Virus record (IMG/VR): IMGVR_UViG_3300028384_000422
Location: 1-64,000 of that record
Reading direction: 5' to 3' (one strand)
DNA: 64,000 bases
Source: a virus
In this document: positions 1 to 63,410 of the stretch, piece after piece
How the letters are laid out: each line of letters starts with the position of its first letter
Position numbering within the stretch: the stretch's first letter is position 1
Made by a program: the position numbers and the translations under genes
The notes under the pieces: model-generated
What the model was told of the DNA's origin: nothing
What the model saw: the letters and a program-made list of their open reading frames with translations, nothing else
The model's database searches: none

Positions 1-329
1 CCGCACTTGGGTTTAGTTGTTTGTCCTGGTTGCTTGGCACAGGGTTTTCCTGCATATTTGCCGCCCAGTTGAACCCAACCAGGCTTGCCATCAGAAGACT
101 TACTCTTGCCAAACCAGTCACGCAGAGAAGAATCACCACTTTTGTTTTCTTCTTTAAAACCATCACCAGACTTCCATGTTTTACGTTTCACTTGTTTTTT
201 CTGTGCGAGTTTATTAGCGGTGGCGTACATGACTTCCTTATCTCTGTCGCCATAAAGCTCCTTAAAGCGATGATGATTTTTCTTCATCCCTTTAACGATT
301 CTATCTGCTTCCTGATTAACTGTTGGCAT
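1..329 (-). CDS. Hypothetical basic protein downstream of gp16, truncated by the window edge
   Basis: Hand translation from ATG at 329: MPTVNQEADRIVKGMKKNHHRFKELYGDRDKEVMYATANKLA...SLRDWFGKSKSSDGKPGWVQLGGKYAGKPCAKQPGQTTKPKC, open to base 1. Not in the ORF track. Confidence 0.75.
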   Translation of the reverse strand, partial: MPTVNQEADRIVKGMKKNHHRFKELYGDRDKEVMYATANKLAQKKQVKRKTWKSGDGFKEENKSGDSSLRDWFGKSKSSDGKPGWVQLGGKYAGKPCAKQPGQTTKPKC

Positions 330-330
330 A

Positions 331-680
331 TCAACCCGATACTTGCACTTCGTTGATATACATGGTCATGCCATTTGTGGTATCACCCTGTGCCTGAATC
401 TTAATACTATTTCTAGCAAATGCAGTGCCAGTAAATGCAGCAAGTGCAGATGCATCAGCATCAATAGTAATAGCACCAGTTACAGGATTAACAGCAGTGA
501 CTTCTTTATGGGAGAAGTTGTAACCAGAAACAGCAGCACCAGAGATGGTTACATAATCACCAACAACAATATTAGTTTGACGCTGAGTGTCATCCAGAGA
601 TAATACACAAGGATTAGCAGCAGTTGCACCTGCAATCTTTGCTGCAAATCCTGCACGGGGACGGTTACATTCGATGACAT
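331..680 (-). pseudogene. Small virion-type protein gene, frameshifted near 645-657
   Basis: ATG at 680 (MSSNVTVPVQD) follows a late promoter but stops after 43 codons. A second frame (AAKIAGATAANPCVLSLDD...MYINEVQVSG) runs to TGA at 331 with no ATG/GTG/TTG start near its 5' end. The 350-nt span is not a multiple of 3. Confidence 0.6.
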
Positions 681-1118: not shown

Positions 1119-2149
1119 TAAATTGCCTCGTCTTGTCCAGTTACAGGATTACGTTTCTTCATGTCAGTAAACTCTGCCTTGAGTTCACCGAAACCAAAGT
1201 CATCTTCAGAATCAAGGAATGCAGCGTCAAGTTCATTGACTAAGTACACATTTGATCCATTGACGTGTGCTGCTGCAACACTATCTTCATGACCCCTAGC
1301 TACTGTCAGATTATTACCACTTATCTTAGTAACTCTAATGAGTTCTGTATCGATGTAGATACTATCAAATCTGCTGATACTAGAGGCATCTGCAACAGCG
1401 ATTAGGTTATCATCAGTATCAGTTGCAGAAGTCAACGTAGTTACAACTACACCATCTCTATCTTGCAGAGCAGTGGGTGTAACTGTATAGCGAACTTCTC
1501 TTGGTGCTTTGTTGACATCTACACTCGTATACATGTCTGTAATCGCTTTCTTGATAGTTGCAGACTCACTAACAGGACCGTAGAGATATGTTTTTACAGT
1601 AAAATCTAATGTATAAATGATTGCTCTACGTTGAGCAAAGTCACCTTCATAACTATCTTCATAGTCAATACTGTTTAAAACAATAGGAACGTCCTTTGTT
1701 TCATTCATCGAAGGAAGCAATTTGACTGATAGATTGTAATGCGGTTGAAAGATAGGAAGAATCTGTTCAATAATTTGTAACCCATCTTCCTGATTTTTAG
1801 AGATAACACCTACTTCAAAAGTAAGATTATAAGGAACAGGCATGAATACATTCTTATTCTTAGTGCTGCTACTTGATACTTTAATTTTTTGCGTAGGTGA
1901 AACTTTTCTAGATCCATCATAACTAATACCTTTGATCTCAAAAGAGATTCTAGGAAGAGTAATCTGAACCCTCTTATTAGTAGGGTCCGACATTTGGTCG
2001 AGACGCGCCAGGAACTTTTGCTTAGGACCGTATGCCAGAGGCACCTTCATTACTTCATCTTGACGACGAAGTTCGATATTGTTGAATAAAGTTCCAAATG
2101 CAACAATAGTCTTTCTAAAAATTTCGTGATATGAATAATTGCCTAACAT
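1118..2149 (-). CDS. gp15: Tail sheath stabilizer/terminator (T4 gp15-like) with an extra C-terminal domain
   Basis: YHEIFRKTIVAFGTLFNNI, KVPLAYGPKQKF, LPRISFE, PVPYNL and QIIEQILPIFQP motifs; synteny 13-14-15-16. Confidence 0.93.
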   Translation of the reverse strand: MLGNYSYHEIFRKTIVAFGTLFNNIELRRQDEVMKVPLAYGPKQKFLARLDQMSDPTNKRVQITLPRISFEIKGISYDGSRKVSPTQKIKVSSSSTKNKNVFMPVPYNLTFEVGVISKNQEDGLQIIEQILPIFQPHYNLSVKLLPSMNETKDVPIVLNSIDYEDSYEGDFAQRRAIIYTLDFTVKTYLYGPVSESATIKKAITDMYTSVDVNKAPREVRYTVTPTALQDRDGVVVTTLTSATDTDDNLIAVADASSISRFDSIYIDTELIRVTKISGNNLTVARGHEDSVAAAHVNGSNVYLVNELDAAFLDSEDDFGFGELKAEFTDMKKRNPVTGQDEAI

Positions 2150-3069
2150 TAGATTGTTCCATCAGTAATAGATCCAACAGTACCGAAAGGATTAGTCTCG
2201 GTGAAATCAATAATATCGTTATCGAGAGTCTCGAAATCGTAATTCTGATCGTATTCACTGTTTTGGTTATTTATCGTATTATACGACGCAGTAGTCCAGG
2301 ATGCAGAAGAACTTCCACCAGTAAGAGTCTCAGGAATTGTAAATGTTCCCGAACGATTAATAACGATAAGAGTTCTTGTAGAACTATCCCAAGACTTAAC
2401 TTCGGCAGTGACATTTGAAGTTCCACCAGTAACGGTTTCACCAGCAGTAAAGTCTCCTGTGCCACCTGCTACGAGACCGACAGTAATCGCATTAGCAAAG
2501 GCAGTCTCAACAGCATCCAGTTCTGTAATACCAGTGTTGATTTCTTCGTCGCTGTACTCGAAGAGTTCGCATTGACATTCCCAAACAAAATTCTTACCCA
2601 GTTGATAGAAGGGACGCTCTACTTCTACAAACTTAATTTCAAACAAATGCTTTGTGATAGGGAACCAAATTAGATCTCCTTCGTTTGGTCTTCCTTCTGC
2701 ATTAAGTGTTTCAAGGTCGTCAACTTGTGCTTTAAACTTCTCACGGGAGAAAATAAACGTTGTCTTATCTTCGACGCGAATTCCAAACTTGCTAAGAAGC
2801 TCGCCTTGTCCTTCCCATCCTTCAACATTATTGACATATGCCCTGATTGCCCTCGCGCTTTCAAATTTGCCATCAGAGTCCTCTCCGAAGACCGTATCGC
2901 GGTTGACCAGCGTGCGAGGAACGTAGTAAATATCTTGCCCATACATTTCAATAGATTCTACGACAAGGTTTTCCATGAACTTCTGCTCCTGAGAAGAAGC
3001 ATTTGCGTTCAATAAACTAGAGTGATTACTAAAAACGTAATCTTGTGCTGGAGAGTTTTGAAATGCCAT
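2149..3069 (-). CDS. gp14: Neck protein (T4 gp14-like)
   Basis: ESIEMYGQDIYYVPR, LSKFG, RPNEGDLIWFP, LFEIKFVE, PFYQLGK, DFTETNPFG. Confidence 0.93.
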   Translation of the reverse strand: MAFQNSPAQDYVFSNHSSLLNANASSQEQKFMENLVVESIEMYGQDIYYVPRTLVNRDTVFGEDSDGKFESARAIRAYVNNVEGWEGQGELLSKFGIRVEDKTTFIFSREKFKAQVDDLETLNAEGRPNEGDLIWFPITKHLFEIKFVEVERPFYQLGKNFVWECQCELFEYSDEEINTGITELDAVETAFANAITVGLVAGGTGDFTAGETVTGGTSNVTAEVKSWDSSTRTLIVINRSGTFTIPETLTGGSSSASWTTASYNTINNQNSEYDQNYDFETLDNDIIDFTETNPFGTVGSITDGTI

Positions 3070-3070
3070 A

Positions 3071-3877
3071 TTAGCCTACCAGATCCATAGGAGGGATTTC
3101 GTAAGTAGAACGAACTTGTTCTTCAAGGTCTTGCTTAAATTTAGACGCATCATCTAAGATTTTGCGACCATTAAGTGTGACGCCACCCAACATTTGAATA
3201 CCATCATACTTACTTAGGTTGCGACCCCATTGCTGTTGAAACAATGCTTCAACATAGTCCTTCAACCAGGAATCGTTATACATTCCTGTATATGTATCAG
3301 GATCTTGACGCATCACAACTTCAACTAAAATAAAATCACCCGCTTGTAAATCTGCCCAATCCATATCAAGATAAAGTCTACTCTGATGCTCATTGAATCG
3401 GACCCTGCGATTCGCTTGAGAGTTGGTAACAAAATCCAAAGTCTCAAGGTACTGAGAAGTCATGAAGTAATGAAGGATATGTCCATGCGTCATTGCATAG
3501 ATATCATTCAAAAAGATTTGATATTTAATATTAAAAATATTCCCAGGAACGATGCTAGAAGCACCAATCTGAGTATAAACATGATTAACAGAGAGGACGT
3601 TTGGCGGGAGTGATACATACTCATTACCTTCTGTCCAATCCGTGCCAGTGATAGCGGATCCTGTCTGAGCTGCAGTTTTAATTGCATCCGTTACCTCAAT
3701 TTTAATGAATGCTTTGTAACTACCGTTGTAGTGATACTCTTGATAGTAATCAATAGCTTCTTCAATCAGATCATCTAGTTGCTCAGTAGCAACGTTGATG
3801 TCAATCGTAGGATATCCTAAACGACGAAGAGCATAATCTCTTAGTTCGGTTTTAGTTGCGGGTCTAGTTGCTGACAT
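3071..3877 (-). CDS. gp13: Neck protein (T4 gp13-like)
   Basis: ELRDYALRRLGYPTIDINV, WLKDY, QWGRNLSKYDGIQMLGGVTLNG. Confidence 0.93.
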   Translation of the reverse strand: MSATRPATKTELRDYALRRLGYPTIDINVATEQLDDLIEEAIDYYQEYHYNGSYKAFIKIEVTDAIKTAAQTGSAITGTDWTEGNEYVSLPPNVLSVNHVYTQIGASSIVPGNIFNIKYQIFLNDIYAMTHGHILHYFMTSQYLETLDFVTNSQANRRVRFNEHQSRLYLDMDWADLQAGDFILVEVVMRQDPDTYTGMYNDSWLKDYVEALFQQQWGRNLSKYDGIQMLGGVTLNGRKILDDASKFKQDLEEQVRSTYEIPPMDLVG

Positions 3878-3883
3878 TTGTTA

Positions 3884-5164
3884 TCAAGCGAATGAGGAAA
3901 TAGTGAGAGTTGTAACATCATTTGCACTGACGACTTCTCCAACTTTGAAGAATCCATCAACGTTATCAACAGTGATCTGGTTAGTTCCCAGAGCAGTAAT
4001 AATACCAGTTGTGCCACTAGTAGCACCAGTGACAATTGCACCGACTTCCATCGTAGTGATGTCAGTCATGGACAAGGTTGCATTAGTAGCGACAGTCGCG
4101 ATATCAACTGTACCGCCTGAACCGCCTGCCTGAACAACCGTAATTGTTTCACCAGCAACATATCCAGTGCCGCCATCATTGATGGTGACGTTGGTGATTG
4201 CACCAGCAGAAGCTGTGATATCAACAATCAGAGAGGCAGATCCAGATCCACCAGTCGTTGCCAGAGCAGTCCCTGTAACATAGTTAGAACCGCCTGTAAG
4301 GGTCGCCAAGTTGAAGGAGAGGACCTTACCAGCATTAGGGTTGGTAATTGTTACAGTATCAGAAATAAGATAATCAGAACCACCAGCATTAACTGCAGCA
4401 GCAGTAATCACTCCACCAACAACAGTGGTATCAACTGTCAGAGAAGAACCAGTGCCACCAGAGGTAGCAACAGCAGTTCCAGCAGTGAATCCACCACCAC
4501 CACCATTATCAACACCAACTGTAACAACTGCACCAGGTGTAGGATCACCATCAAGTGCCAGAGTTAAAGTGGTAGTAGTTGCAAGGTTGTTGAGCATTGC
4601 CTGAAGTTGAGCAAATGCATCGTCAAGTTTTGTCTGAACTCTTGCCTCTGTATAATAAAGGTTGTTGCCTTCAGACAGATTTGTTGTAGATGCAGCAGCA
4701 ATCTTGGTATCAAAAGATGCCTCGGCGCGAGCATCAGTATAATAAACGTTAGTAGAACCTTCACTCAGATTATCAGTAGTTGCAGCGGCAATCTTAGTAT
4801 CGAAAGATGCCTCAGCACGAGCATCTGTGTAATAGAGATTTGTAGAACCTTCAGACAATGCATCGGTATCAGCAGCAGCGATACGAGCATCAGCACGAGC
4901 ATCTGTGTAATACAGATTAGCAACACCTTCAGTTACATCATCAGTAGTCTTAGCACTAAAACTTGAATCGAAACGTGCTTCGGTGTAGAAGATATTAGTG
5001 CTACCCTCAGTGACATTATCAGTATTGATATCTACCTGAGTGACGCTTAATTGACCTGCACCAGACAATTCAATACCAGTGCCATATGTGAAGTGTGTAC
5101 GAGTCCTTGCAGCGGTTGTAAAGAGGTTTGTAGATCCTTCAGTTACATTATCAGTATCAATGTC
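3884..5164 (-). CDS. Long fibre protein, distal segment (frame continues from a break at ~5165)
   Basis: Frame is open from 5164 (DIDTDNVTEGSTNLFTT...) to the stop at 3884. The track ORF 3884..5068 uses an internal TTG. Contains TD-x-L-x-EG-x-NLYYT repeats like the upstream segment. Confidence 0.7.
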   Translation of the reverse strand, partial: DIDTDNVTEGSTNLFTTAARTRTHFTYGTGIELSGAGQLSVTQVDINTDNVTEGSTNIFYTEARFDSSFSAKTTDDVTEGVANLYYTDARADARIAAADTDALSEGSTNLYYTDARAEASFDTKIAAATTDNLSEGSTNVYYTDARAEASFDTKIAAASTTNLSEGNNLYYTEARVQTKLDDAFAQLQAMLNNLATTTTLTLALDGDPTPGAVVTVGVDNGGGGGFTAGTAVATSGGTGSSLTVDTTVVGGVITAAAVNAGGSDYLISDTVTITNPNAGKVLSFNLATLTGGSNYVTGTALATTGGSGSASLIVDITASAGAITNVTINDGGTGYVAGETITVVQAGGSGGTVDIATVATNATLSMTDITTMEVGAIVTGATSGTTGIITALGTNQITVDNVDGFFKVGEVVSANDVTTLTISSFA

Positions 5165-5200
5165 TGTTTGTGCCCTCAGTCAGATCTGTAGTGGAGTGAT
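4630..5200 (-). repeat. Coding tandem repeat, 26-30 aa unit (TDxLSEGSTNLYYTDARA...), about 7 copies
   Basis: Visible in translation; near-identical DNA copies around 4690-4870. Confidence 0.85.
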
Positions 5201-5765
5201 TTGCAATGCTGGAAACTTCACCAGTTACATCACCAATAACACCACCATTTGCAGTGATTGCACCAGTGAATGTGGAGGTTCCAGTTACTGCCAGAGTGCT
5301 GGACAGAGTAGTTGCACCAGTAACTCCAAGTGTGGAACTTAGAGTTGCAGCACCAGTTACGCCAAGTGTATCGGATAGAGTAGTTGCACCAGTAACTCCA
5401 AGAGTGTTGCTCAGAGTTGTAGCACCCGTTACGCCTAAAGTGCTACCGAAAGTTACAGCACCATCGACATTTAGTGTGCTTGCGGTATCTACAGCACCAG
5501 TTGTGCCATCTACAGTAAAGTTATTTGTGTCAACTGCAATGCCACCATTGGCATTCAGAAGACCCGTGAGGGTAGTTACACCAGTTACACCCAAAGTGCC
5601 GCTTGCTGTAAGCGATGTTACACTGACTGCACCAGCAGAGAAACCGCCGCTACCGTCACGAAGGACGAGGTTATTTGCAGCGTTTGTTGCAGAAGATGCA
5701 ACGTTGATTGTAGTATTACCAGCAATACCATCAGCATTGGTTAGTGTAATACCAGAAGATGCGGT
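5157..5765 (-). CDS. Long fibre protein, middle segment (between breaks at ~5766 and ~5165)
   Basis: TASSGITLTNADGIAG...LVLRDGSGGFSAG...HSTTDLTEGTN. Shares LVxRDxxGxFSA and NxFTVDxxxG repeats with the 1473-aa ORF. Confidence 0.7.
   Translation of the reverse strand, partial: TASSGITLTNADGIAGNTTINVASSATNAANNLVLRDGSGGFSAGAVSVTSLTASGTLGVTGVTTLTGLLNANGGIAVDTNNFTVDGTTGAVDTASTLNVDGAVTFGSTLGVTGATTLSNTLGVTGATTLSDTLGVTGAATLSSTLGVTGATTLSSTLAVTGTSTFTGAITANGGVIGDVTGEVSSIANHSTTDLTEGTNRH
5270..5450 (-). repeat. 36-bp (12-aa) coding tandem repeat TLGVTGATTLS(S/N/D), about 5 copies
   Basis: STLGVTGATTLS NTLGVTGATTLS DTLGVTGAATLS STLGVTGATTLS STLAVTGTSTFT. Confidence 0.9.
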
Positions 5766-8700
5766 GAGTTCTGACCATGTAACCAGTGCCAGATTGTGCT
5801 GCAAGTGCAGTAATATCCGCATCATCATATGTGGTAGTGATGGTTACTGCCTGAGATCCATCGAAGGAAACATTGCCGTTGACAACACCATCAATGGTGA
5901 TAACTCTTGCAGTCTTAAGGATATCTGCACTCGAAGCATTACCCAAGAAACCTGCAGCAGCACCTACACCACTAGCAGCAGTGATTTGATTAGCAGAGAA
6001 GTCACCGCTAGAGTCACGAGCAACAACAGTAGTCGGTGTCGCAGCAGAAGCGGTTGTCATGCTGTCCAGAAGGTCAGCATTCAAATTATTAATTTTGGTG
6101 GTAGTAGGAATGACCAGTGCTGCACCAGATGTAACTTGAGAAACAATCTGACCATCAACAGTCAGGGTGCCATCAATGTTGGCATTGGCATCAACATCAA
6201 GAGATGTGCCAGACCCAGTAAGATTAAGAGAACCAGCACGAAGAGCGCCATCTGTACCAGCAAGAACTTCAGAGTTGTTAGTTGCATCAGTTACGAACGC
6301 GAATTGGTTGGCGGATCTGTCGTATCCGAAGAAGCCAATTTTAGCAGAGCCGTCATAATAACGGAATTCAACACCGCGATCCTTACCATCGTTAGACGCG
6401 GGTGCTGTGTCACCACCCACAGTAATAATAGGGTCATCGAGAGTTGTGACCGTGCTATTGACAGTAGTGGTTGTGCCATTAACAGTAAGGTTTCCAGTAA
6501 CAGTAAAATTAGATTCGGCAGTTACGTCACCACCAACATCCAGGGTTCCACGAATATCTGTGTTGCCATTATCAGTATCAACAGTGAACTTATCAACAGC
6601 ACTGTTGGTCTGAATCTTGAACATCTTATTGTCGGCGTTAATGGTAACGTTGTCATGTGTTACCAAAGCGCCAGAGATGTCAGCAGAATTATTGAGATCT
6701 AAAGCACCCGTCAGTTCGGTAGAACCATAGATTCTCGCATCACCACTAACGGCAAGATTCTTACCAATACCAGCACCACCAGTCAGACGGAATGCACCAT
6801 CTGCAGCATAGTTACCAGTCAGAGTTTGCTGAGTATTTCTTGTAAATGTAACAACATCAGAGACGCCCAAAGTATCATTGATCTGAGTTGCATCACCAAC
6901 AGTCAGTGTGCCAATGATATTCGTATTACCATTGTCTGCATCAACACCAAACTTCTCAACAGCAGATCCATTTCTAATCGAGAAAATCTCGTTAGCAGCA
7001 TCAACAATCAGAGAATCGTTGATAGTTGTCTGACCTTGGACAACCAGTGTGCCGTCAGTTGCAACGTTACCAGATGCAGAAGCAACGGTAAACTTGTCTG
7101 TGCTACCGCTTCTAACTGCAAAGTTAGCATCGACATCAACCGTGCCATTAAACTCAGAGTTACCTTGGACCAGAAGTGTCTGATCGAATGTAACAGCATT
7201 GCTAACATCTAAGGTGTTGGTGATTTCAGTTGCACCGTTAACATCCAGAGTGCCTTGAATATCTGTATTACCAGTTACATTATCAACAAAGAATTTGTCG
7301 GTTGTACCGTTTCTGACAGCGAAGTCTGCATCAACATCAACTGTGCCGTTGAACTCTGAGTTACCAGCAACATCGAGTGTGCCTTGAATATCGGTGTTAC
7401 CAGATGCACCCAGAACGGAGAACTTAATGGTATCGCCAGAATATCTCTTACCAACAAACAGACCTTCGCCAGAACCTGTGCCACCAACGTGCAGAGTTCT
7501 TTCAATACCAGCACCACCATGTGCTCTGATAGTTGTAGTATTATGAGATGCATAAGAAGGAGTTGCCTGATAAGAGTCACCGAAACGACCTCTGTATCTG
7601 ACACGCAACCAGTTCAGTCTCGATTCTGCCTCTGTCGCACTATCTTTAACTTCAATAGCACCGTTGACGTGTAGTGTTCCATCAATCAGAGCATCACCAG
7701 CGGCGTAGAAACCACCGTCAAGTCTAAAAGCACCGTAGTCGTTAGATTGAATCTCCCAAACACCAGTGCCAGCATTCTTAGCAACTGTGATGTCATTAGT
7801 GCTTTCAAGATGAACGTCACCAGAAACATTCAAAGTGTTGTTGAGATCCAGAGCACCTGTAAGAGTTGTATCACTAGTAACTCCAAGAGTACCAGCAACG
7901 GTTGTATTACCAGAAGCAGCAACAACGTTGAACTTATTTGTATTAACGTTGAAATTGCCAGTTACATCGAGAATACCAGCGAGAGATCCGTTACCAGTTG
8001 TAGATTGAAACTCGACCTTAGTAGTTCCAGAACCATTGTTCAGTTGTAAAGTCTTGGATGCACCCTGCAGAACGATGTTATCGTCAAAGCGAGAAGTGCT
8101 GTTAGCACGGAATGTGCCATCAACATCCAAAAGACCACCAATGTTTACATCTTGACCAATACCAGCACCACCAGCAACTACTAAGTCGCCAGTTGTATTA
8201 GAAGTGGAGTTAGTATTAGTTGTAAGTTTTACATTACCAGCAATAATACCAGAATCAGTACCAGTAAAGACTTCGGAATTATTTGTAGCAGCATGAAGGA
8301 AACGATAACCGCCTTCATGACCACCCAAATCAGTATAGTTAGTATCCCAACCATAGAAACCTAAGCGTGCTTGAGAATCATAATAACGGAACTCAATACC
8401 ACGATCGAGGTTGTCATCAGATCCAGGAGCAGTATCACCACCGAGAAGGATAGTAACATCATCAACACTCAGTTCAGTTGAATTAACTGTAGTAGTTGTG
8501 CCATCAATCTGAAGGTTACCAAAGATACGAACCAACCCAGTAGCAGCACGGTCATCGCCAGGGTCAATATTCAATTGACCAGTAGAGGCAAGATAGTTTG
8601 ATTGAATTCTTAATTCTTCAATATGAACCTTGCCATTTGCATCTGTAGTATCAATATCAACAACATCTTCTGCACTAATCGTAACAGTGCTTGTGCCAGA

Positions 8701-57124: not shown

Positions 57125-57946
57125 TTAGGAATAATTGTATACGATAACGCAACCTGCACCGCCGCGACTATTATTGTGTGCAAAACCATTCTGTGAATAG
57201 TAACCATAACCTCCACCAGATCCCCACTGACCATGGGTAATCTCTTCTTGGTTGTTATAGTAATGGTGTGATGATCCTGCAGAGTGCCAGAATGATGATC
57301 CAGCACCACCTTCTCTGTTGTGACCGTGAGACATCTCACCACCACCGCCAGGTACATTAATATCACCACCAGAAGCACTTCCGCCAGGTCCACCTTGGTG
57401 GGGAACATCAGTTTGTCCACCTTGTCCACCACCAGCAGTACAATAAGAACCGAAAGATGAAGTGCCACCTGATGATCCCCTGCCACTATTTCTAGCATAA
57501 CTACCACCAGCGCCGTAAGTATAAGCGACTGATGATACACCAGAGACATCAATCCACTTGATAGCAGTAGCACCACCACCGCCACCTGCGCCACGGTAGC
57601 TGTTATCATTAACTCGTGCTCCACCACCACCGCCAGTGACATATACTAAAACATAATTACATCCAGCAGGTTTTGTCCATGTTCCACTACCACCAGTAGT
57701 AGAGTTAGAGTTCCAAGTTCCATTCTGTGATGTATATACGTTCATGCCTAACAATCTACCACCCATAGCAGCGGCAGCATAATTAGTACCATCGAACACC
57801 AATGCTTGCCCATTGGCAGCAGACATAACGTTGCTATGCACCCCAGGGACATCAGATAGACTATTAATACCTGTAATTTGTGTAGTGGAATCACCCGTAA
57901 ATGATGTAGTTCCAACATTCAAGGTTCCTACATTTAATTCTGACAT
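57125..57946 (-). CDS. Gly-rich fibre/adhesin-like virion protein
   Basis: SGTWTKPAG..VLVYVTGGGGG..GGGGG..GGTSSFGSY..GAGCVIVY polyglycine pattern; late promoter upstream. Confidence 0.78.
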   Translation of the reverse strand: MSELNVGTLNVGTTSFTGDSTTQITGINSLSDVPGVHSNVMSAANGQALVFDGTNYAAAAMGGRLLGMNVYTSQNGTWNSNSTTGGSGTWTKPAGCNYVLVYVTGGGGGARVNDNSYRGAGGGGGATAIKWIDVSGVSSVAYTYGAGGSYARNSGRGSSGGTSSFGSYCTAGGGQGGQTDVPHQGGPGGSASGGDINVPGGGGEMSHGHNREGGAGSSFWHSAGSSHHYYNNQEEITHGQWGSGGGYGYYSQNGFAHNNSRGGAGCVIVYNYS

Positions 57947-57955
57947 GAATTATGT

Positions 57956-58291
57956 TTATTCTTCACTCTTATTTATCTTCTTTACTTGTCTATTGCTCCA
58001 AAATGCCAACAGGATAATAGATGCATAAAAAATAGTATCATCCAACATCACAAGAAAGAAGATAACTGATCCACCATACTTGATAACATCAGGCAGAGGA
58101 GAGATTACCTTTGCAAAGAACTTACGATAGGATTTCTCAAACTTGAAATAACCAAGAGCACCAAGTGTGACCACAAACTCACTGTATGGAATTACAAAAT
58201 ACAATGACAAAATAATAAACAAGGGCCAATAATGTCTCTCAGGGATCTTAGCGACCAATTTGACATAACGACCAATTAAATTCTTAAACAT
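57956..58291 (-). CDS. Small integral membrane protein
   Basis: 111 aa; two internally similar hydrophobic hairpins (FIILSLYFVIPYSEF / SVIFFLVMLDDTIFY). Confidence 0.72.
   Translation of the reverse strand: MFKNLIGRYVKLVAKIPERHYWPLFIILSLYFVIPYSEFVVTLGALGYFKFEKSYRKFFAKVISPLPDVIKYGGSVIFFLVMLDDTIFYASIILLAFWSNRQVKKINKSEE
57970..57976 (-). promoter_or_regulatory. T4-like late promoter (ATAAATA)
   Basis: 23 nt upstream of the ATG at 57946. Confidence 0.7.
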
Positions 58292-58781
58292 AATTTAGAT
58301 TCAAAACCATACGATATTCATCAGTTGTAGATGTTCCTGTGTGCCTCATTGAGTTAGGAAACTCTACAAATCTATTGCCGACACTTTCTACTTTAGTGCC
58401 ATCTTCAAACATTGTGTATCCATCACAGGTGTTCAAATAATAGATCGATGTCTTAACATAAGGGCGATCTTCTGCCTCTGTAATATCATTATGCAGTCCA
58501 TGTTCAACAATACGATCCGTACCTGTCATAAAGTTTGCTTTTATCTTCACAATCGACAGGGGTTGAATCTTATCAAGTAGAGGATAAATGACCTGCATAT
58601 AATCTGTCTGTGGTGCATGATTTGTATAAAACATATGAATCATTTGAACATTTCTCTTGTAGTTCTGAGGACTATCACTGACAATCTTTGAACTAAACCA
58701 AGGGAAATTAAATGCTAACATCTGATTACGGATGTTATTATATGTTTGTTCAGGTAAGTAATTATCAATAACGTTGATCAT
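58284..58781 (-). CDS. 2OG-Fe(II) oxygenase-like protein
   Basis: VIDNYL start, HxD (HGLHND), TSIYYLN..DGYT.F, distal H (RHTG) and R (RMVLNLNY). Confidence 0.8.
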   Translation of the reverse strand: MINVIDNYLPEQTYNNIRNQMLAFNFPWFSSKIVSDSPQNYKRNVQMIHMFYTNHAPQTDYMQVIYPLLDKIQPLSIVKIKANFMTGTDRIVEHGLHNDITEAEDRPYVKTSIYYLNTCDGYTMFEDGTKVESVGNRFVEFPNSMRHTGTSTTDEYRMVLNLNYV

Positions 58782-60499
58782 TTTTCAACGACTGCAATAT
58801 ACAAACCATTCCACCAATCCTTGTCATCTTCTACGATCTCTGTCCTGATAATTCTGTCGTAAACAACATCTTTACCCTTCAAGAATTCTTTTGCGTTATC
58901 AACAGCACCATTAAAGTTTGCATCATCAACAACTAAGATGTATGAATCTTCTGCTTGATTGTGAATATGTTCTAAGTTAGGAATCATATTGTCTTCAATC
59001 TCTGCATCATAGAAGATAACATTAGGTTTGAAGTCTGGATTAAACTCCATCTGTAGGATAGGTTTAACACAGAAACCAACTGAACAATCTGTATTGAAAT
59101 ACTTCTCAGCGTTCTGAATAAACTCATCGATAGGATTATCAATGGTATATTTGTCAAATAGATTCTTATTTTTAGGACGAATACATCCTTCAGAGAAATC
59201 ATCAATAGCATATGCTTTTACTGCCTCGTTACCCATCAGAGCAGCAAACAACGTGCTGCCTGTGTAACAACCAACATCTGCATAGATTGTACCACGCTCT
59301 GAACATAGATTGTTCAAGAAATGTCTAACTTTATTAGAAGACAGACCAAGAACATTATATCCATCGGGTTTGAAGTTGGAGTTATCGTCCACAGCATTAT
59401 CAATGGCACGGATGACTCTATCTACCAGAGGATTCATTTCACGCTTTTGTTTCTTCAGTCGGAATTCTACCACAGTTTCACAATAGTTACAATCCCAACA
59501 GTCAAACTTACATGTCTTGATCTTTTCACGCCATTTGTTGATAGGTGCATCGGGCATATCAACATCCTGCATGTAATCCTTAAACTCAGGATACATTAAA
59601 CTACAAGTGGGATCATCCCATCGCTTAATAAGATCCATGGACTCTAATAGTCGCATAGTATCTTCTCTACCATGTAGTTTGAATACGTCAATAACATCTA
59701 AGAATTCTTTCCAATCACTCTTCCATGGGGGAAGATTAGCAACCTTAAGTTCATGTGCAGGATCAACTGCGTCCCATCGTGAACATGAAATACGACTGAT
59801 TTCACTGTTGAAGTATTGCGGTTCTGTTCCTTGTCGTGTGCTGTTGTACTGATAATGTTCAGGCATGATAGGACAACCACCCCAACAATGTTCATTAGCA
59901 AGTAATGACAACTCTATAGGAGTTCCTTTCTCTGCACAATATTCTTTTGCTTGTTTGATACGATCCAATGCTTCTCTGTCTCGCATAACATCACGATCCA
60001 GATTAATATAATTGAATCCAGCACTAGCGAGAGTGACAATCTCGTTAGGTTTGACTACCTCACGAATAATAGTATTCTTGATCTTTAGTTCAGGATATTC
60101 TTTTTGGATTTGTCCTGTCATCACCCATGATGTATGAGGAATAGTTGCAGTCCTAACACCAGCATCATACAAGAACTTAAAGTTTTTAATAAACTCATCT
60201 AAGTTCTTTTGATCTGGACGCACCCAGATGTTATTAAACGTAGCAGACAAAGGAATACCAGTCTTCTCACCAATCACCAGAGCATTGATAGCAACCTGCT
60301 GTGCATCTGTCTCTGTACGAAATACATCACCCATCGCATCTTGCGAGAATGGTGGCATCCTAGAGGTGAAATATAGATCGTAAATTAGATGTTGATGCTG
60401 TAAAAGGAAGGGGACTAACCCTTCCTCAATATAATCAAGATCCAGTTTCGGATTTATCGGAAGACTGAAGATAGCGGTCTTCAACGTTGTTGTTTGCAT
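58778..60499 (-). CDS. U32-family (Fe-S hydroxylase-like) domain fused to a class I SAM methyltransferase
   Basis: N-terminal: INLDRDVMRD, LLANEHCWGGCP, ISC, FKLHGRE, CKFDCWDCNYC. C-terminal: YADVGCYTGST, AIDDF, IFYDA, ILVVDDAN. Confidence 0.78.
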   Translation of the reverse strand: MQTTTLKTAIFSLPINPKLDLDYIEEGLVPFLLQHQHLIYDLYFTSRMPPFSQDAMGDVFRTETDAQQVAINALVIGEKTGIPLSATFNNIWVRPDQKNLDEFIKNFKFLYDAGVRTATIPHTSWVMTGQIQKEYPELKIKNTIIREVVKPNEIVTLASAGFNYINLDRDVMRDREALDRIKQAKEYCAEKGTPIELSLLANEHCWGGCPIMPEHYQYNSTRQGTEPQYFNSEISRISCSRWDAVDPAHELKVANLPPWKSDWKEFLDVIDVFKLHGREDTMRLLESMDLIKRWDDPTCSLMYPEFKDYMQDVDMPDAPINKWREKIKTCKFDCWDCNYCETVVEFRLKKQKREMNPLVDRVIRAIDNAVDDNSNFKPDGYNVLGLSSNKVRHFLNNLCSERGTIYADVGCYTGSTLFAALMGNEAVKAYAIDDFSEGCIRPKNKNLFDKYTIDNPIDEFIQNAEKYFNTDCSVGFCVKPILQMEFNPDFKPNVIFYDAEIEDNMIPNLEHIHNQAEDSYILVVDDANFNGAVDNAKEFLKGKDVVYDRIIRTEIVEDDKDWWNGLYIAVVEK

Positions 60500-61322
60500 A
60501 ATCAGTTAATACTCCAGAGGTGTCAAACATTTGAGGTCCTTGACCTTTTAACATATTCTCTACTTTTTCTTCTGCTGCTGCTTTAATCTTACCGACATTG
60601 ATATTCATAGCAGTAGAATATGTCATTGCCAGATCAGTCACTGCTGCTTGATCTTCAGGACTCATCATAAGCATACTATCTAGATTGCCTGCTTGAATCC
60701 TACCAGTGGTAAGAAGATCGATGGAGCATTGTTTTGCTAAACGAGCAATCCAATATTTAACCTCTTCACCTTCCTCATTTTCTTTTGCGAGGATGGTTGC
60801 CTTGAGTGTCTCCAGATCTTCGAGATCAACATTCTCTCCTGTGCGCTCTTTGATGATACGCAACAGACCTTCAATCTCTCTCTTACACTGACGCAGTTTG
60901 TTGTGCCATACTTGTTTATCGAGAAGCAAAATCTCGATTTCATATTCTTTATCTTGCTTGAAATATGGATCTTCCTCAGTCTCTATTTCATGGCGAATTC
61001 TAGCGATATCGTTGAGTGTTCGCTTATATGAAATGGTTACTTTCTGGAGAGCATTAAATCGCGTCTGGATCTCCATAATTGCTTGACGCATTTGACGCCA
61101 AGGTGTTACCTGTGAGTTAACAACAAAATATTTGTTTTGATAATCAGTTTGACCAAAGAATTGAGAATCACTCCATCCGACCAATCCTTCATCAAAATCA
61201 GATAAGACCCAGGGATCAATGTTCTCTAGGTCTTCGATTGTTTTAGATAAAGGCAGTCTCTCAGAATCTAATTCCGTACTCAAAAGGTTCTTTTCTGACG
61301 ATGAGTCCGTCTTCATTTTCAA
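60435..61322 (-). CDS. Helical/coiled-coil hypothetical protein of the fibre cassette
   Basis: 295 aa, overlaps both neighbours; TPWRQMRQAIMEI and YWIARLAKQ..IDLLTTGRI; exact start uncertain. Confidence 0.78.
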   Translation of the reverse strand: MKMKTDSSSEKNLLSTELDSERLPLSKTIEDLENIDPWVLSDFDEGLVGWSDSQFFGQTDYQNKYFVVNSQVTPWRQMRQAIMEIQTRFNALQKVTISYKRTLNDIARIRHEIETEEDPYFKQDKEYEIEILLLDKQVWHNKLRQCKREIEGLLRIIKERTGENVDLEDLETLKATILAKENEEGEEVKYWIARLAKQCSIDLLTTGRIQAGNLDSMLMMSPEDQAAVTDLAMTYSTAMNINVGKIKAAAEEKVENMLKGQGPQMFDTSGVLTDYANNNVEDRYLQSSDKSETGS

Positions 61323-62016
61323 TACACCTACCGTAATTTAGACATTGTTGATTTGACATTGAGATTCCGAAGTAATCTTCTAGGAATACATTGACATCAG
61401 CGACATTTGTGATTGCTTTTAATTTAACAATCAACGTCTGTTCTGCAACAGCGAGATCAAAAAGTTTGCCTTTCCACTCACCCTGTTTCTCGACAACTTT
61501 ACCAGCAAACTGTTCAGTTGTCAACCCACGAAGTTCTGCTAACCTATGAATTAACTTAGTTTCGTGACTATTGTCTGCCAAATATGCTTGAGATTCTGCA
61601 AGTTGGTCTCCCCACGTTGCATCTTCAAGACTACTATATGTAGCACGGAGTTCTTGATATCTTTTTTCAAATACTTCTTGCACTGCTAATGCAACTACTT
61701 TCTTCATGAAAGGCAATGTATATTGCTGCTGAATAGCAGAATCAACTGCTACTTTATCTTTTTGTGTAGTCCCTTCTTCACTCTCACCATACTCAGATCT
61801 TTCTGCTCTGTATTCACCCCAGTATCTCTGACCAAAGGTGCCAGTCTTATAATCAAATCTAAGATAATGAATGTATTGAGGAATATATTGGAAGTATTGA
61901 TCTTCCAATTCAAAGACTTCTAGACCTAAGAAGTCACCAATTCTTGTACCCCAGACTTTAATCTGAGGCCATTTCTCTTCATCGAGAACGATAATATCGG
62001 GATTAGTAGTTGCCAT
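61261..62016 (-). CDS. Putative tail-fibre assembly/chaperone protein
   Basis: TGATG coupling to the fibre; ExxTWxxQxxExxAYxAD...LAxxRG...KV pattern seen in phage fibre-assembly proteins. Confidence 0.65.
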   Translation of the reverse strand: MATTNPDIIVLDEEKWPQIKVWGTRIGDFLGLEVFELEDQYFQYIPQYIHYLRFDYKTGTFGQRYWGEYRAERSEYGESEEGTTQKDKVAVDSAIQQQYTLPFMKKVVALAVQEVFEKRYQELRATYSSLEDATWGDQLAESQAYLADNSHETKLIHRLAELRGLTTEQFAGKVVEKQGEWKGKLFDLAVAEQTLIVKLKAITNVADVNVFLEDYFGISMSNQQCLNYGRCIENEDGLIVRKEPFEYGIRF

Positions 62017-63410
62017 CAGAAGTTAGGAATAGTTGTGCCGTAGTTGTATTGTGCGACGCCATTGTCATCAACACCAGAAATAGCAGATGCAGAAGAACAA
62101 TGAGCAGAACTCATGCCACCATGACCAGTCGGAGGTGAAGATCCACCAAGGTTAGTAACACCATCAGTTTGATAGTTCACCTTGAAGGTGTTGTTATTCT
62201 GAGAACCATTATAGTTACCCAAGCAATAACCTTTCCTCATTCCAATTTCAAAGTTTTCCTCACCCATTCTACCGAAGTCAATACCTCTAACCTGAATACC
62301 TGATGTATCATCACACTTTTGATTGCCATTCTGGTTATTGTTACCAGTTCCAACATACATGTGACCTAACATAGTACCAAGAATTTTCTTCCATCCATCA
62401 CCACCAGGTCCATGGTTCCAACTAACCCAAGATTCAGTCTTAAATGTCATTGCTTGACGTGTGCCACCACGCTTATACCATCCTTTTGTTCTAGAGTTAC
62501 CACCCCATGTAGGGTCATCACCACCATCACCATGGTTAGGAGGGAATCCAGATGTTCTCATAACCTCTGTAACAACATTAAATGCATCAGTTCTAGCGTT
62601 ACCACCACCCTGTAGATAGGATATTCCACCAGAATGTTCATAATCTTGGAATGAACCCATCGATCCTCTGTTAACAGTCATATCCCAAGAGTTTTGGTGT
62701 GAGATACCAGATTCAGAGGTCATACTGAAACCAGACGTATAGTTAGAAGAACCTCTATAAGTGTTCTCCATAGAATGGAAGAAGTGTCTATTATCCGAGA
62801 AAGATCCTGCCATATAAGCACCAGATCTATCAAGAGTATCACCTAAGTTTGATGATGTATCTGTAGCATGAACAGTTCTATTGACGTTTCTCCATGGTGA
62901 ACCACTTTGATATCCACCACCAACATATCCATGGGTCCAAATTCTTGCCAATCCCCAATCATTTAGGACACCTTCAAAAGACCAATATGCTTCAGTTCCA
63001 TTGGATTTAAGGACAGCACCCTGAGAATAATCAACACTAAATCTATCGGTAGATTGATTCGGTGTTCCTCCACCGCTACCAGCAATAGGTCCCCATTCGG
63101 GTTGATTTGTGCTGCTATTTAAGGAATATCCCTCAAACGTGCCATCAGTTGTATTATATCGGAACATACCTTGAACAGGTGTTCCAGGGCGTTGAGCAGT
63201 TGTACCAACGGGAACAACAACACTACCCGTTCCAGAAATATCTAAGTTTGATCGCGGATTTGTAGTGTTAATACCAACTTCATTATTCGCACTATCGACA
63301 TACAGCGTGCCCGAATCAAAGTTAAAATTGCCACTAGATTCCAACTGGAATTGTGCCGTTCCGCCACCACCACTTAAAGAAACTACTCTATCTACATTAA
63401 GTTGGGACAT
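62016..63410 (-). CDS. Fibre-like virion protein with C-terminal Gly/aromatic repeat (propeller-like) domain
   Basis: VGINTTNP, VPVGTTAQRP..GMFRYN..FEGY fibre motifs; repeated GY-x-x-GG blocks; late promoter upstream. Confidence 0.78.
   Translation of the reverse strand: MSQLNVDRVVSLSGGGGTAQFQLESSGNFNFDSGTLYVDSANNEVGINTTNPRSNLDISGTGSVVVPVGTTAQRPGTPVQGMFRYNTTDGTFEGYSLNSSTNQPEWGPIAGSGGGTPNQSTDRFSVDYSQGAVLKSNGTEAYWSFEGVLNDWGLARIWTHGYVGGGYQSGSPWRNVNRTVHATDTSSNLGDTLDRSGAYMAGSFSDNRHFFHSMENTYRGSSNYTSGFSMTSESGISHQNSWDMTVNRGSMGSFQDYEHSGGISYLQGGGNARTDAFNVVTEVMRTSGFPPNHGDGGDDPTWGGNSRTKGWYKRGGTRQAMTFKTESWVSWNHGPGGDGWKKILGTMLGHMYVGTGNNNQNGNQKCDDTSGIQVRGIDFGRMGEENFEIGMRKGYCLGNYNGSQNNNTFKVNYQTDGVTNLGGSSPPTGHGGMSSAHCSSASAISGVDDNGVAQYNYGTTIPNF

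Follow-up and report, generated by a model that had tools for sequence, protein, structure and literature searches.

A divergent U32-superfamily barrel coupled to an O-methyltransferase-type domain in marine cyanophages

The window analysed here is a 64,000-nucleotide stretch of viral DNA, positions 1 to 64,000 of IMG/VR virus record IMGVR_UViG_3300028384_000422, and it carries a gene for a 573-residue protein in which a branch of the U32 superfamily is coupled to an O-methyltransferase-type domain. This protein is a real, abundant and unannotated phage enzyme. Its N-terminal domain is a very divergent U32-superfamily barrel and its C-terminal domain is a class I S-adenosylmethionine (SAM)-dependent methyltransferase; fused in one chain or encoded by abutting genes, the two belong together in nearly all the phages sampled. 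What would such an enzyme do? We favour a two-domain tailoring enzyme that carries out U32-type hydroxylation and then O-methylation on a target tied to the genes inherited with it, a proposal whose chances we consider evenly balanced.

The fused protein and its two domains

The source virus of the window is a T4-like cyanomyovirus, and the 573-residue protein is 98.4% identical (tblastn) to the Syn19 product recorded as 'hypothetical protein, T4-LIKE GC 354'. The gene is common in marine cyanomyoviruses and is annotated solely as hypothetical. In excerpts of supplement file 1 to Sullivan et al. 2010 (PMC3037559), T4-GC 354 is labelled 'Hypothetical-Protein', and five of the genome columns give coordinates for it; those five also list GC 353, and four columns list GC 352. 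The enzyme falls into phrog_1458 over its full length and into phrog_36869 over residues 6-345, both function-unknown families. It is matched by 126 phage records, many of them near-duplicate isolates (S-RIM2, S-RIM12), of which 123 are from cyanophages and nearly full length while 3 are from Ralstonia jumbo phages and cover residues 6-344 only. Full-text searches, judged by titles and abstract openings, turned up no relevant publication on a cyanophage U32/methyltransferase fusion.

When a large protein collection was searched with the whole enzyme, 1806 of the 7249 candidates scored reached E<=0.001; residues 1-380, used as the query in an exhaustive search of 1.84 billion representatives, matched 274 clusters (50% identity) at the same threshold. 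Together with seven invariant cysteines, these numbers place the enzyme far beyond chance, and the observed open reading frame (ORF) with its motifs is well above what chance would give. A first-pass annotation, made by a model from the letters and an ORF list, had quoted a series of motifs, every one of which is present in the 573-residue protein in the order given (Table 1). Residues 1-47 (FSLPINPK...) are kept in relatives, which argues that the long start is the correct one; some database entries begin at M48.

The assignment of the N-terminal domain to the U32 superfamily comes from a chain of profile comparisons. Among 56 longer relatives of the domain, a single bridging protein, P0259, passes the Pfam Peptidase_U32 model PF01136 (38.1 bits against a cut-off of 22.4), and the other 55 match no relevant family. 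P0259 matches the query domain at E 4.4e-14, and its PF01136 score is similar to that of E. coli UbiV, a validated iron-sulphur (Fe-S) U32 protein that itself reaches just 38.4 bits. It belongs to a cellular clade of DPANN archaea, Omnitrophota and candidate phyla radiation (CPR) bacteria, with the source label 'U32 family peptidase / collagenase-like PrtC', and 27 of the 28 aligned members of this archaeal/CPR clade pass PF01136. With P0259 excluded, a profile of 61 phage-type N-terminal domains, 20-44% identical to that of the window, was aligned by hhalign with the 28-member clade at 99.9% probability and E 4.7e-33 over 311 columns, a match that spans the whole domain including its C-terminal cysteine cluster. 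The clade in turn aligns with an alignment of E. coli TrhP, RlhA, UbiU and UbiV (96.6%, E 5.7e-10, 152 columns). Comparisons of the phage family with single UbiU or UbiV sequences were uninformative. Many clade members (P0294-P0367) are fused to long tetratricopeptide-repeat (TPR) regions.

AlphaFold2 models of the full-length protein (mean predicted local distance difference test score (pLDDT) 93.5, predicted template-modelling score (pTM) 0.78) and of the N-terminal domain alone (pLDDT 92.5, pTM 0.89) were compared with known structures. Among 48,161 representative PDB chains (VIA-align), the first-ranked match to the N-terminal model was 5d88_A, the 'U32 peptidase Mk0906' (Z 16.7, root-mean-square deviation (rmsd) 3.4 A, 230 of 247 residues aligned, model range 6-284), and the whole model again placed it at the top (Z 16.9, rmsd 3.2, 229 of 247 aligned). 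Behind it come generic barrels, none above Z 12.3 (4.4 Z below 5d88), with an rmsd of 4-6 A. Foldseek against the full PDB likewise put 5d88 first for the N-terminal domain (TM on target 0.71, rmsd 4.2). Two other enzymes had similar E-values, MTHFR and xylose isomerase, but their TM was 0.3-0.5 and their rmsd 8-16 A. No other U32 catalytic-domain structure was among the matches listed. Pyruvate kinase and PRMT5, which Foldseek returned for the whole two-domain model, were rejected as architecture look-alikes (rmsd ~23 A). The U32-type barrel that the first-pass annotation had proposed is thus borne out by superfamily homology, through the profile chain, and by the 5d88 fold; a match to the Pfam Peptidase_U32 model and the canonical cysteine motif of the family, by contrast, are both missing.

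The same annotation had seen a class I methyltransferase fused to the barrel and had pointed to TrmR as a comparator, and the structure search bears this out. Class I methyltransferases match residues ~377-573 at Z 13-16.4 (VIA-align), the best being the O-methyltransferase 8c9v (Z 16.4, rmsd 2.5), followed by 5x7f (15.9), 6g7d (15.8) and 3tr6 (15.6). TrmR of Bacillus subtilis is close behind (5zw3, Z 15.4, rmsd 2.6, 167 residues aligned; 8k1f, Z 13.9). The domain is a class I methyltransferase whose nearest structures are of the small COMT/CCoAOMT/TrmR O-methyltransferase type. Neither Methyltransf_24 nor Methyltransf_3 is found in the window's own protein (Pfam, E<=1), but PF13578 is found in 12 of 24 fused relatives (best E 1.1e-8), and in an Atlas comparison of residues 372-573 the nearest named clusters belong to the Methyltransf_24 set in 25 of 30 cases (0.96-0.97), some co-annotated TylF or Methyltransf_3. 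Excerpts of PMC6158493 give the Mg ligands of TrmR as D133, D159 and N160. D498, D525-D526 and N528 of the phage protein would correspond to these ligands, judged by position without superposition; the Asp-to-Asp spacing is 27-28 residues in the fused homologues (n=110) and 26 between D133 and D159 of TrmR. The domain is acidic, with an isoelectric point (pI) of 4.48 and a median of 4.72 in 109 fused homologues. One of the 24 'fused' relatives, probably P0125 by alignment, has DUF7483 (PF24299, E 1.3e-51) in place of the methyltransferase, and P0128, another row of the same alignment, also has an unrelated C-terminal part.

How constant is the association of the two domains? We retrieved 80 viral-contig loci with an alignment of 'standalone' N-terminal-domain proteins and scanned their ORFs with hidden Markov models (HMMs) of the fused family. 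The N-terminal domain was detected in 80/80 loci and the methyltransferase domain in 77/80, in the same ORF in 18 and in a separate ORF in 59. In all 59 split loci the methyltransferase ORF runs in the same direction as the U32-like gene and directly adjoins or overlaps its 3' end; most of the sampled 'standalone' forms are therefore halves of split pairs. Of the 3 loci with no methyltransferase, two lie on contigs that stop within ~100 nucleotides of the U32-like gene, and the third, L091, on a 224-kb contig, truly lacks it. Clustering at 90% identity gives 27 groups, 14 fused, 12 split and 1 with no methyltransferase. The exceptions to the split-pair rule are large phages of the Ralstonia and L091 types and the cellular homologues.

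Cysteine signature and place in the superfamily

The conservation of the cysteines, on which the Fe-S proposal of the first-pass annotation depended, is complete: C205, C209, C239, C330, C334, C337 and C340 are all invariant in the 61-sequence alignment. Apart from C239, they fall into two motifs. E-x-C-x3-C is present in 104/104 fused proteins, in 70 of 76 N-terminal-domain representatives of at least 320 residues and in 120/120 members of the archaeal/CPR clade; C-x3-C-x2-C-x2-C is present in 104/104, 76/76 and 100/120 of the same sets. E. coli TrhP and RlhA carry the canonical U32 pattern and neither of these motifs; the regular expression used for the canonical pattern matched neither UbiU nor UbiV. 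According to excerpts of PMC6599085, TrhP requires E162, C170 and C177 (E-x7-C-x6-C) and RlhA requires E161, C169 and C176. Excerpts of PMC6747719 list the [4Fe-4S] ligands as C169, C176, C193 and C232 in UbiU and as C39, C180, C193 and C197 in UbiV, and describe CX6CX15CX3/4C as common to most U32 families. The K-L-H-G-R strand of the phage protein is kept at K274, G277 and R278 in at least 90% of 85 sequences; the E. coli consensus has SFKIEGR, but the E. coli profile alignments end before this region.

With no Pfam Peptidase_U32 match and no canonical motif, the phage-type proteins form a separate branch of the U32 superfamily and are not ordinary members. In a quick tree of 79 rows, with SH-aLRT (Shimodaira-Hasegawa-like approximate likelihood-ratio test) supports and a midpoint root, a long branch (3.05, support 100) parts RlhA, TrhP and UbiU from all others; the position of UbiV is unreliable, since UbiV itself has a long branch. 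The archaeal/CPR clade (92), a cellular group of ~400-residue proteins (99) and the phage-type group (99) are separate, and the methyltransferase-fused forms are one nested subclade (96). The distinct cysteine signature, common to the archaeal/CPR clade and to Dehalococcoidia paralogues, marks a branch of the superfamily of which we found no published description, judged by titles and abstract openings.

Could a barrel with such a signature do something other than hydroxylation? It might carry out other Fe-S or metal chemistry, radical or redox at C-x3-C-x2-C, or hold a structural zinc, with the methyltransferase acting on N, C or S. The signature is unlike that of all characterised U32 proteins, C330-x3-C334-x2-C337 has radical-SAM spacing, the homologue has radical-SAM genes beside it both in Dehalogenimonas and in the split cassettes of phages, and O- and N-methyltransferases were tied in the fold search. 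The cluster, however, lies C-terminal to the barrel and not after strand 1, and it contains a fourth cysteine, which in a radical-SAM-type cluster would fill the SAM-binding iron site; the enzyme has no PF04055 match (Pfam, E<=1). U32 is the best fold match by a clear margin, and the conserved Asp/Asp/Asn fits cation-dependent O-methyltransferases. We regard this reading as unlikely, and U32-type hydroxylation followed by O-methylation remains the one we favour.

Gene neighbourhood

Table 1. Features of the enzyme gene and of its neighbours, with positions in the window
Feature	Position	Strand	Basis
U32-like/methyltransferase gene	58778..60499	(-)	single ORF, 573 codons + stop; orthologue of Syn19_046, T4-GC 354; phrog_1458 E 4e-288
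Quoted motifs: LDRD, residues 167-170; ANEHCWGGCP, 201-210; S238-C239; KLHGRE, 274-279			direct sequence check
Quoted motifs: CKFDCWDCNYC, residues 330-340 (C-x3-C-x2-C-x2-C); DVGCYTGST, 408-416; VVDD, 523-526			direct sequence check
U32-type (beta/alpha) barrel, residues 6-284	59648..60484	(-)	structure matches to 5d88_A and profile-profile match
E203-x-C205-x3-C209, variant of the U32 Glu/Cys motif	59873..59893	(-)	C205 and C209 invariant in 61-sequence alignment
C239, third conserved barrel cysteine	59783..59785	(-)	invariant in 61-sequence alignment
K274-L-H-G277-R278, resembling the canonical FKIEGR strand	59666..59680	(-)	conservation, 85 sequences
Helical extension, residues 285-350, holding the C-terminal Cys cluster	59450..59647	(-)	model secondary structure; aligns to the same U32-clade region
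C330-x3-C334-x2-C337-x2-C340, candidate second metal or Fe-S site	59480..59512	(-)	invariant in 85 sequences
Helical linker, residues 351-376	59372..59449	(-)	model helix 357-370
Class I SAM-dependent methyltransferase domain, residues 377-573, COMT/CCoAOMT/TrmR-like	58781..59371	(-)	structure matches; PF13578 in relatives
SAM-binding motif I, D408-VGCYTGST-416	59252..59278	(-)	G410 and G414 at least 90% conserved; motif in 106/110 fused homologues
D498 after beta-4 (F-Y-D-A), candidate SAM/metal ligand	59006..59008	(-)	at least 90% conserved; F-Y-D in 106/110
D525-D526-A-N528, end of beta-5, candidate metal ligands	58916..58927	(-)	at least 90% conserved; 108/110
165-aa gene, labelled denV (DNA endonuclease V) in Syn19, phrog_274, possibly 2OG (2-oxoglutarate)-oxygenase-like	58284..58781	(-)	PADLOC, PHROG
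295-aa helical partner gene (phrog_1409, T4-GC 353), overlapping the enzyme start	60435..61322	(-)	phage record counts, HMM
251-aa partner gene (phrog_1604, T4-GC 352)	61261..62016	(-)	121 phage records; in most of 80 viral loci
464-aa fibre-like protein ('sericin 1 precursor-like', phrog_1417), heading the block	62016..63410	(-)	homologues upstream in many viral loci
273-aa glycine-rich protein (PF21722; phrog_863 'tail fiber assembly'), two genes downstream	57125..57946	(-)	

The enzyme is co-inherited with the 295-residue helical, 251-residue and fibre-like proteins. The 295-residue gene is matched by 123 phage records, all from cyanophages, the same number as the cyanophage records of the enzyme, and its HMM detects it in 76 viral loci out of 80; of the other four, three have no upstream sequence and one is L091. 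The enzyme, 295-residue and 251-residue genes adjoin in most of the lineages listed and are ~6 kb apart in the S-ShM2/S-RIM14 group. The tail-fiber-assembly-type gene two genes downstream of the enzyme sets the block among fibre genes. PADLOC matched neither the enzyme nor its partner genes to a defence family. The consensus of T4 late promoters, TATAAATA, occurs once in the window against 3.7 expected, with none near the block. RNA-library contigs match the enzyme only by a 46-nucleotide piece with 4 mismatches, which is uninformative on expression, while the partner genes are covered in part at 99% identity or higher by contigs from three metatranscriptome runs of one study and from one viral RNA run. 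One 557-nucleotide marine metatranscriptome contig spans the junction of the 251-residue and 295-residue genes (60990..61546) at 99% identity or higher; DNA carry-over is possible.

Does this setting favour a peptidase for virion-protein processing, in line with the family's old name 'U32 collagenase/PrtC'? The gene lies within the structural region, and source annotations in the sister clade read 'collagenase-like PrtC family protease'. Against this, the functionally studied U32 proteins described in excerpts of PMC6599085, PMC6747719 and PMC10990095 are all tied to hydroxylation, the methyltransferase fused or adjacent in 77/80 loci has no peptidase rationale, and the Pfam scan showed no protease motif. 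A peptidase is very improbable, and we return to the tailoring enzyme.

Of the 165-residue neighbour, the first-pass annotation had said that an O2-dependent hydroxylase stands next door. This is weakly supported. The protein matches the PADLOC '2OG' model at E 0.0018, and its family, phrog_274, is also matched by the window's confirmed 2OG oxygenase (7.6e-8); direct comparison of the two, however, is not significant (BLASTP E 0.11, hhalign 0.3%). No DNA-endonuclease-V-type Pfam family matches it at E<=1, and the denV label is probably wrong. The parallel O2-dependent and O2-independent routes that had been suggested are unsupported.

Elsewhere the family keeps varied company. In split-type cassettes a radical-SAM gene (PF04055, E ~1e-9 to 1e-10) lies directly upstream of the U32-like gene (L033 3940-4998; L075 4001-5005), and the L075 cassette also has a 2OG oxygenase. 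In L094 (6676-10375) two tryptophan-halogenase genes (PF04820, E 7.6e-93 and 1e-31) come after the fused gene, together with a 2OG oxygenase. A DUF401/CitMHS-like membrane protein is encoded downstream in split-type cyanophage cassettes (L033 7589-8632), and such a gene also follows the N-domain-only gene of the Ralstonia jumbo phage RP31 (L002 4998-7071); this recurrent DUF401 link hints at small-molecule transport. A dCTP-deaminase gene is found near the N-domain-only genes of two large phages, RP31 (ORF131; L002 9805-10407) and L091 (6345-6968), the latter having GGDEF-EAL and SPFH genes upstream of the N-domain-only gene (1474-6968 region). Cellular homologues of the ~400-residue group were found at 25 loci. 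One Dehalogenimonas chromosome (L009, L019, L020) has three such paralogues beside reductive dehalogenase genes, two of them adjoining B12-binding radical-SAM/PqqD genes. The gene context of 8 cellular homologues revealed no partner consistent across genomes.

Proposed chemistry and comparison with known systems

Hydroxylation followed by O-methylation is plausible by analogy. The barrel would bind at least one [4Fe-4S] cluster, as expected from the U32 family, and would hydroxylate an aromatic or heteroaromatic C-H without O2, as UbiU/UbiV, TrhP and RlhA do. The oxygen donor would likely be prephenate, which excerpts of PMC10990095 report to be the demonstrated source of the oxygen in the case of UbiU/V. 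Because an O-methyltransferase-type domain is fused to the barrel, the new hydroxyl would then be capped with a methyl group from SAM, leaving a methoxy group. This pairing of hydroxylase and O-methyltransferase has precedent, since according to excerpts of PMC6599085 trmR, trhP1 and trhP2 share one operon in B. subtilis and TrhO-TrmR single-gene fusions exist.

Several results weigh against this proposal. The 573-residue protein matches no Pfam family at E<=1, Peptidase_U32 (PF01136) included, and a PF01136 scan of the whole 83.9-kb contig found no match at E<=10 while control genomes were positive. NCBIfam gave chance-level matches only, and sequence searches of the PDB with the protein and two family profiles gave none. 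Set directly against the E. coli paralogues in hhalign, the phage-type profile gives a marginal match (52%, E 1.4e-4). The canonical cysteine pattern is found in 0/104 fused proteins, 0/76 representatives and 0/120 archaeal/CPR clade members, so that an Fe-S site, if present, would be built differently. In the fold search, CbiT- and TrmI (m1A58)-type enzymes were tied with O-methyltransferases to within ~1 Z, and O-specificity is for that reason likely but unproven. Clustered at 70% identity, the 80 loci amount to 9 groups (6 fused, 2 split-type, 1 with no methyltransferase), and co-occurrence counts overstate independent lineages because many phage records are near-duplicates. Excerpts of PMC10990095 state that hydroxylase activity has not been reconstituted in vitro for any protein of the large U32 family, a point that also speaks for a non-hydroxylase barrel. 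An O2-labile Fe-S enzyme is, moreover, awkward in an oxygen-evolving host.

What would the target be? The same two steps might act at pyrimidine C5 of a nucleic acid or nucleotide, making the protein a phage counterpart of TrhP plus TrmR that yields 5-methoxyuridine (mo5U) in tRNA, or an enzyme that modifies rRNA, phage DNA or the pool of dNTPs in an analogous way. Both RNA-linked U32 proteins act at pyrimidine C5 (excerpts of PMC6599085), TrmR is among the best structural matches of the C-terminal domain, and RP31 and L091 carry a dCTP-deaminase gene close to their N-domain-only gene. A weak Atlas lead (0.80) points to Peptidase_U32+Methyltransf_3 proteins of bacteria, named 'tRNA 5-hydroxyuridine methyltransferase', but that score is within the chance range. 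Peptidase_U32_C (Pfam) and the canonical E/C/C motif are both absent, so the architecture is not that of TrhP; the methyltransferase domain is acidic; a tRNA gene scan found none within the window; and the genes co-inherited with the enzyme come from the fibre region rather than from translation or nucleotide functions. We judge the pyrimidine reading improbable.

The target that we favour within the hydroxylate-then-methylate proposal would instead be tied to the co-inherited module, either an aromatic side chain of a module protein or a small ligand that the module handles. Co-inheritance, together with the company of halogenases, oxygenases, radical-SAM enzymes and a transporter-like protein, speaks for a protein or a small molecule. 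Ranked singly, a protein is possible but falls short of probable, a small molecule is slightly less likely, and a nucleic acid is less likely again. In its most specific form, an O2-independent, prephenate-using Fe-S hydroxylase and an O-methyltransferase would introduce methoxy groups at aromatic residues in a co-inherited fibre-module protein, which we consider doubtful. If true, this would be virion protein tailoring of a new kind and the first U32 enzyme to act on protein, and additional marks would come from the enzymes encoded nearby in the cassettes (halogenases, 2OG oxygenases, radical SAM). A relative of O2-independent enzymes is unexpected in viruses of oxygen-producing cells, and a single chain that couples presumed hydroxylation and methyl capping beside probable partner genes may offer a tractable entry to U32 enzymology.

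How does the phage enzyme compare with systems already described? Its N-terminal domain has its barrel fold in common with UbiU/UbiV (ubiquinone), TrhP (tRNA ho5U34), RlhA (23S ho5C2501) and the Mk0906 structure (5d88). It also resembles the U32 Fe-S proteins in a Glu/Cys motif after the same strand, several invariant cysteines and, possibly, an FK-x-x-GR-type strand. It differs from them in that E-x-C-x3-C...C plus C-x3-C-x2-C-x2-C replaces CX6CX15CX3/4C, in falling below every Pfam threshold, in lacking Peptidase_U32_C, in being fused to a methyltransferase, in being encoded by phages of oxygenic phototrophs and in its long branch from RlhA, TrhP and UbiU in the quick tree. The archaeal/CPR/Omnitrophota clade is closer, with full-length homology, E-x-C-x3-C and, in most members, the four-cysteine cluster. 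Unlike the phage enzyme, its members are cellular, pass PF01136, are often fused to TPR regions and are not fused to a methyltransferase.

The C-terminal domain is nearest to TrmR (YrrM) of B. subtilis and to COMT and CCoAOMT in its class I fold, its motif I and its Asp...Asp-(Asp/Asn) spacing, and TrmR in B. subtilis acts downstream of a U32 hydroxylase. In contrast to these enzymes, the phage domain has no Pfam match of its own and no PDB sequence match even by profile, is acidic and is joined to a presumed hydroxylase. The TrhO-TrmR fusions described in excerpts of PMC6599085 likewise combine a hydroxylase and an O-methyltransferase in one polypeptide; there, however, tRNA is the target and hydroxylation falls to TrhO, an O2-dependent enzyme of rhodanese type and not a U32 barrel.

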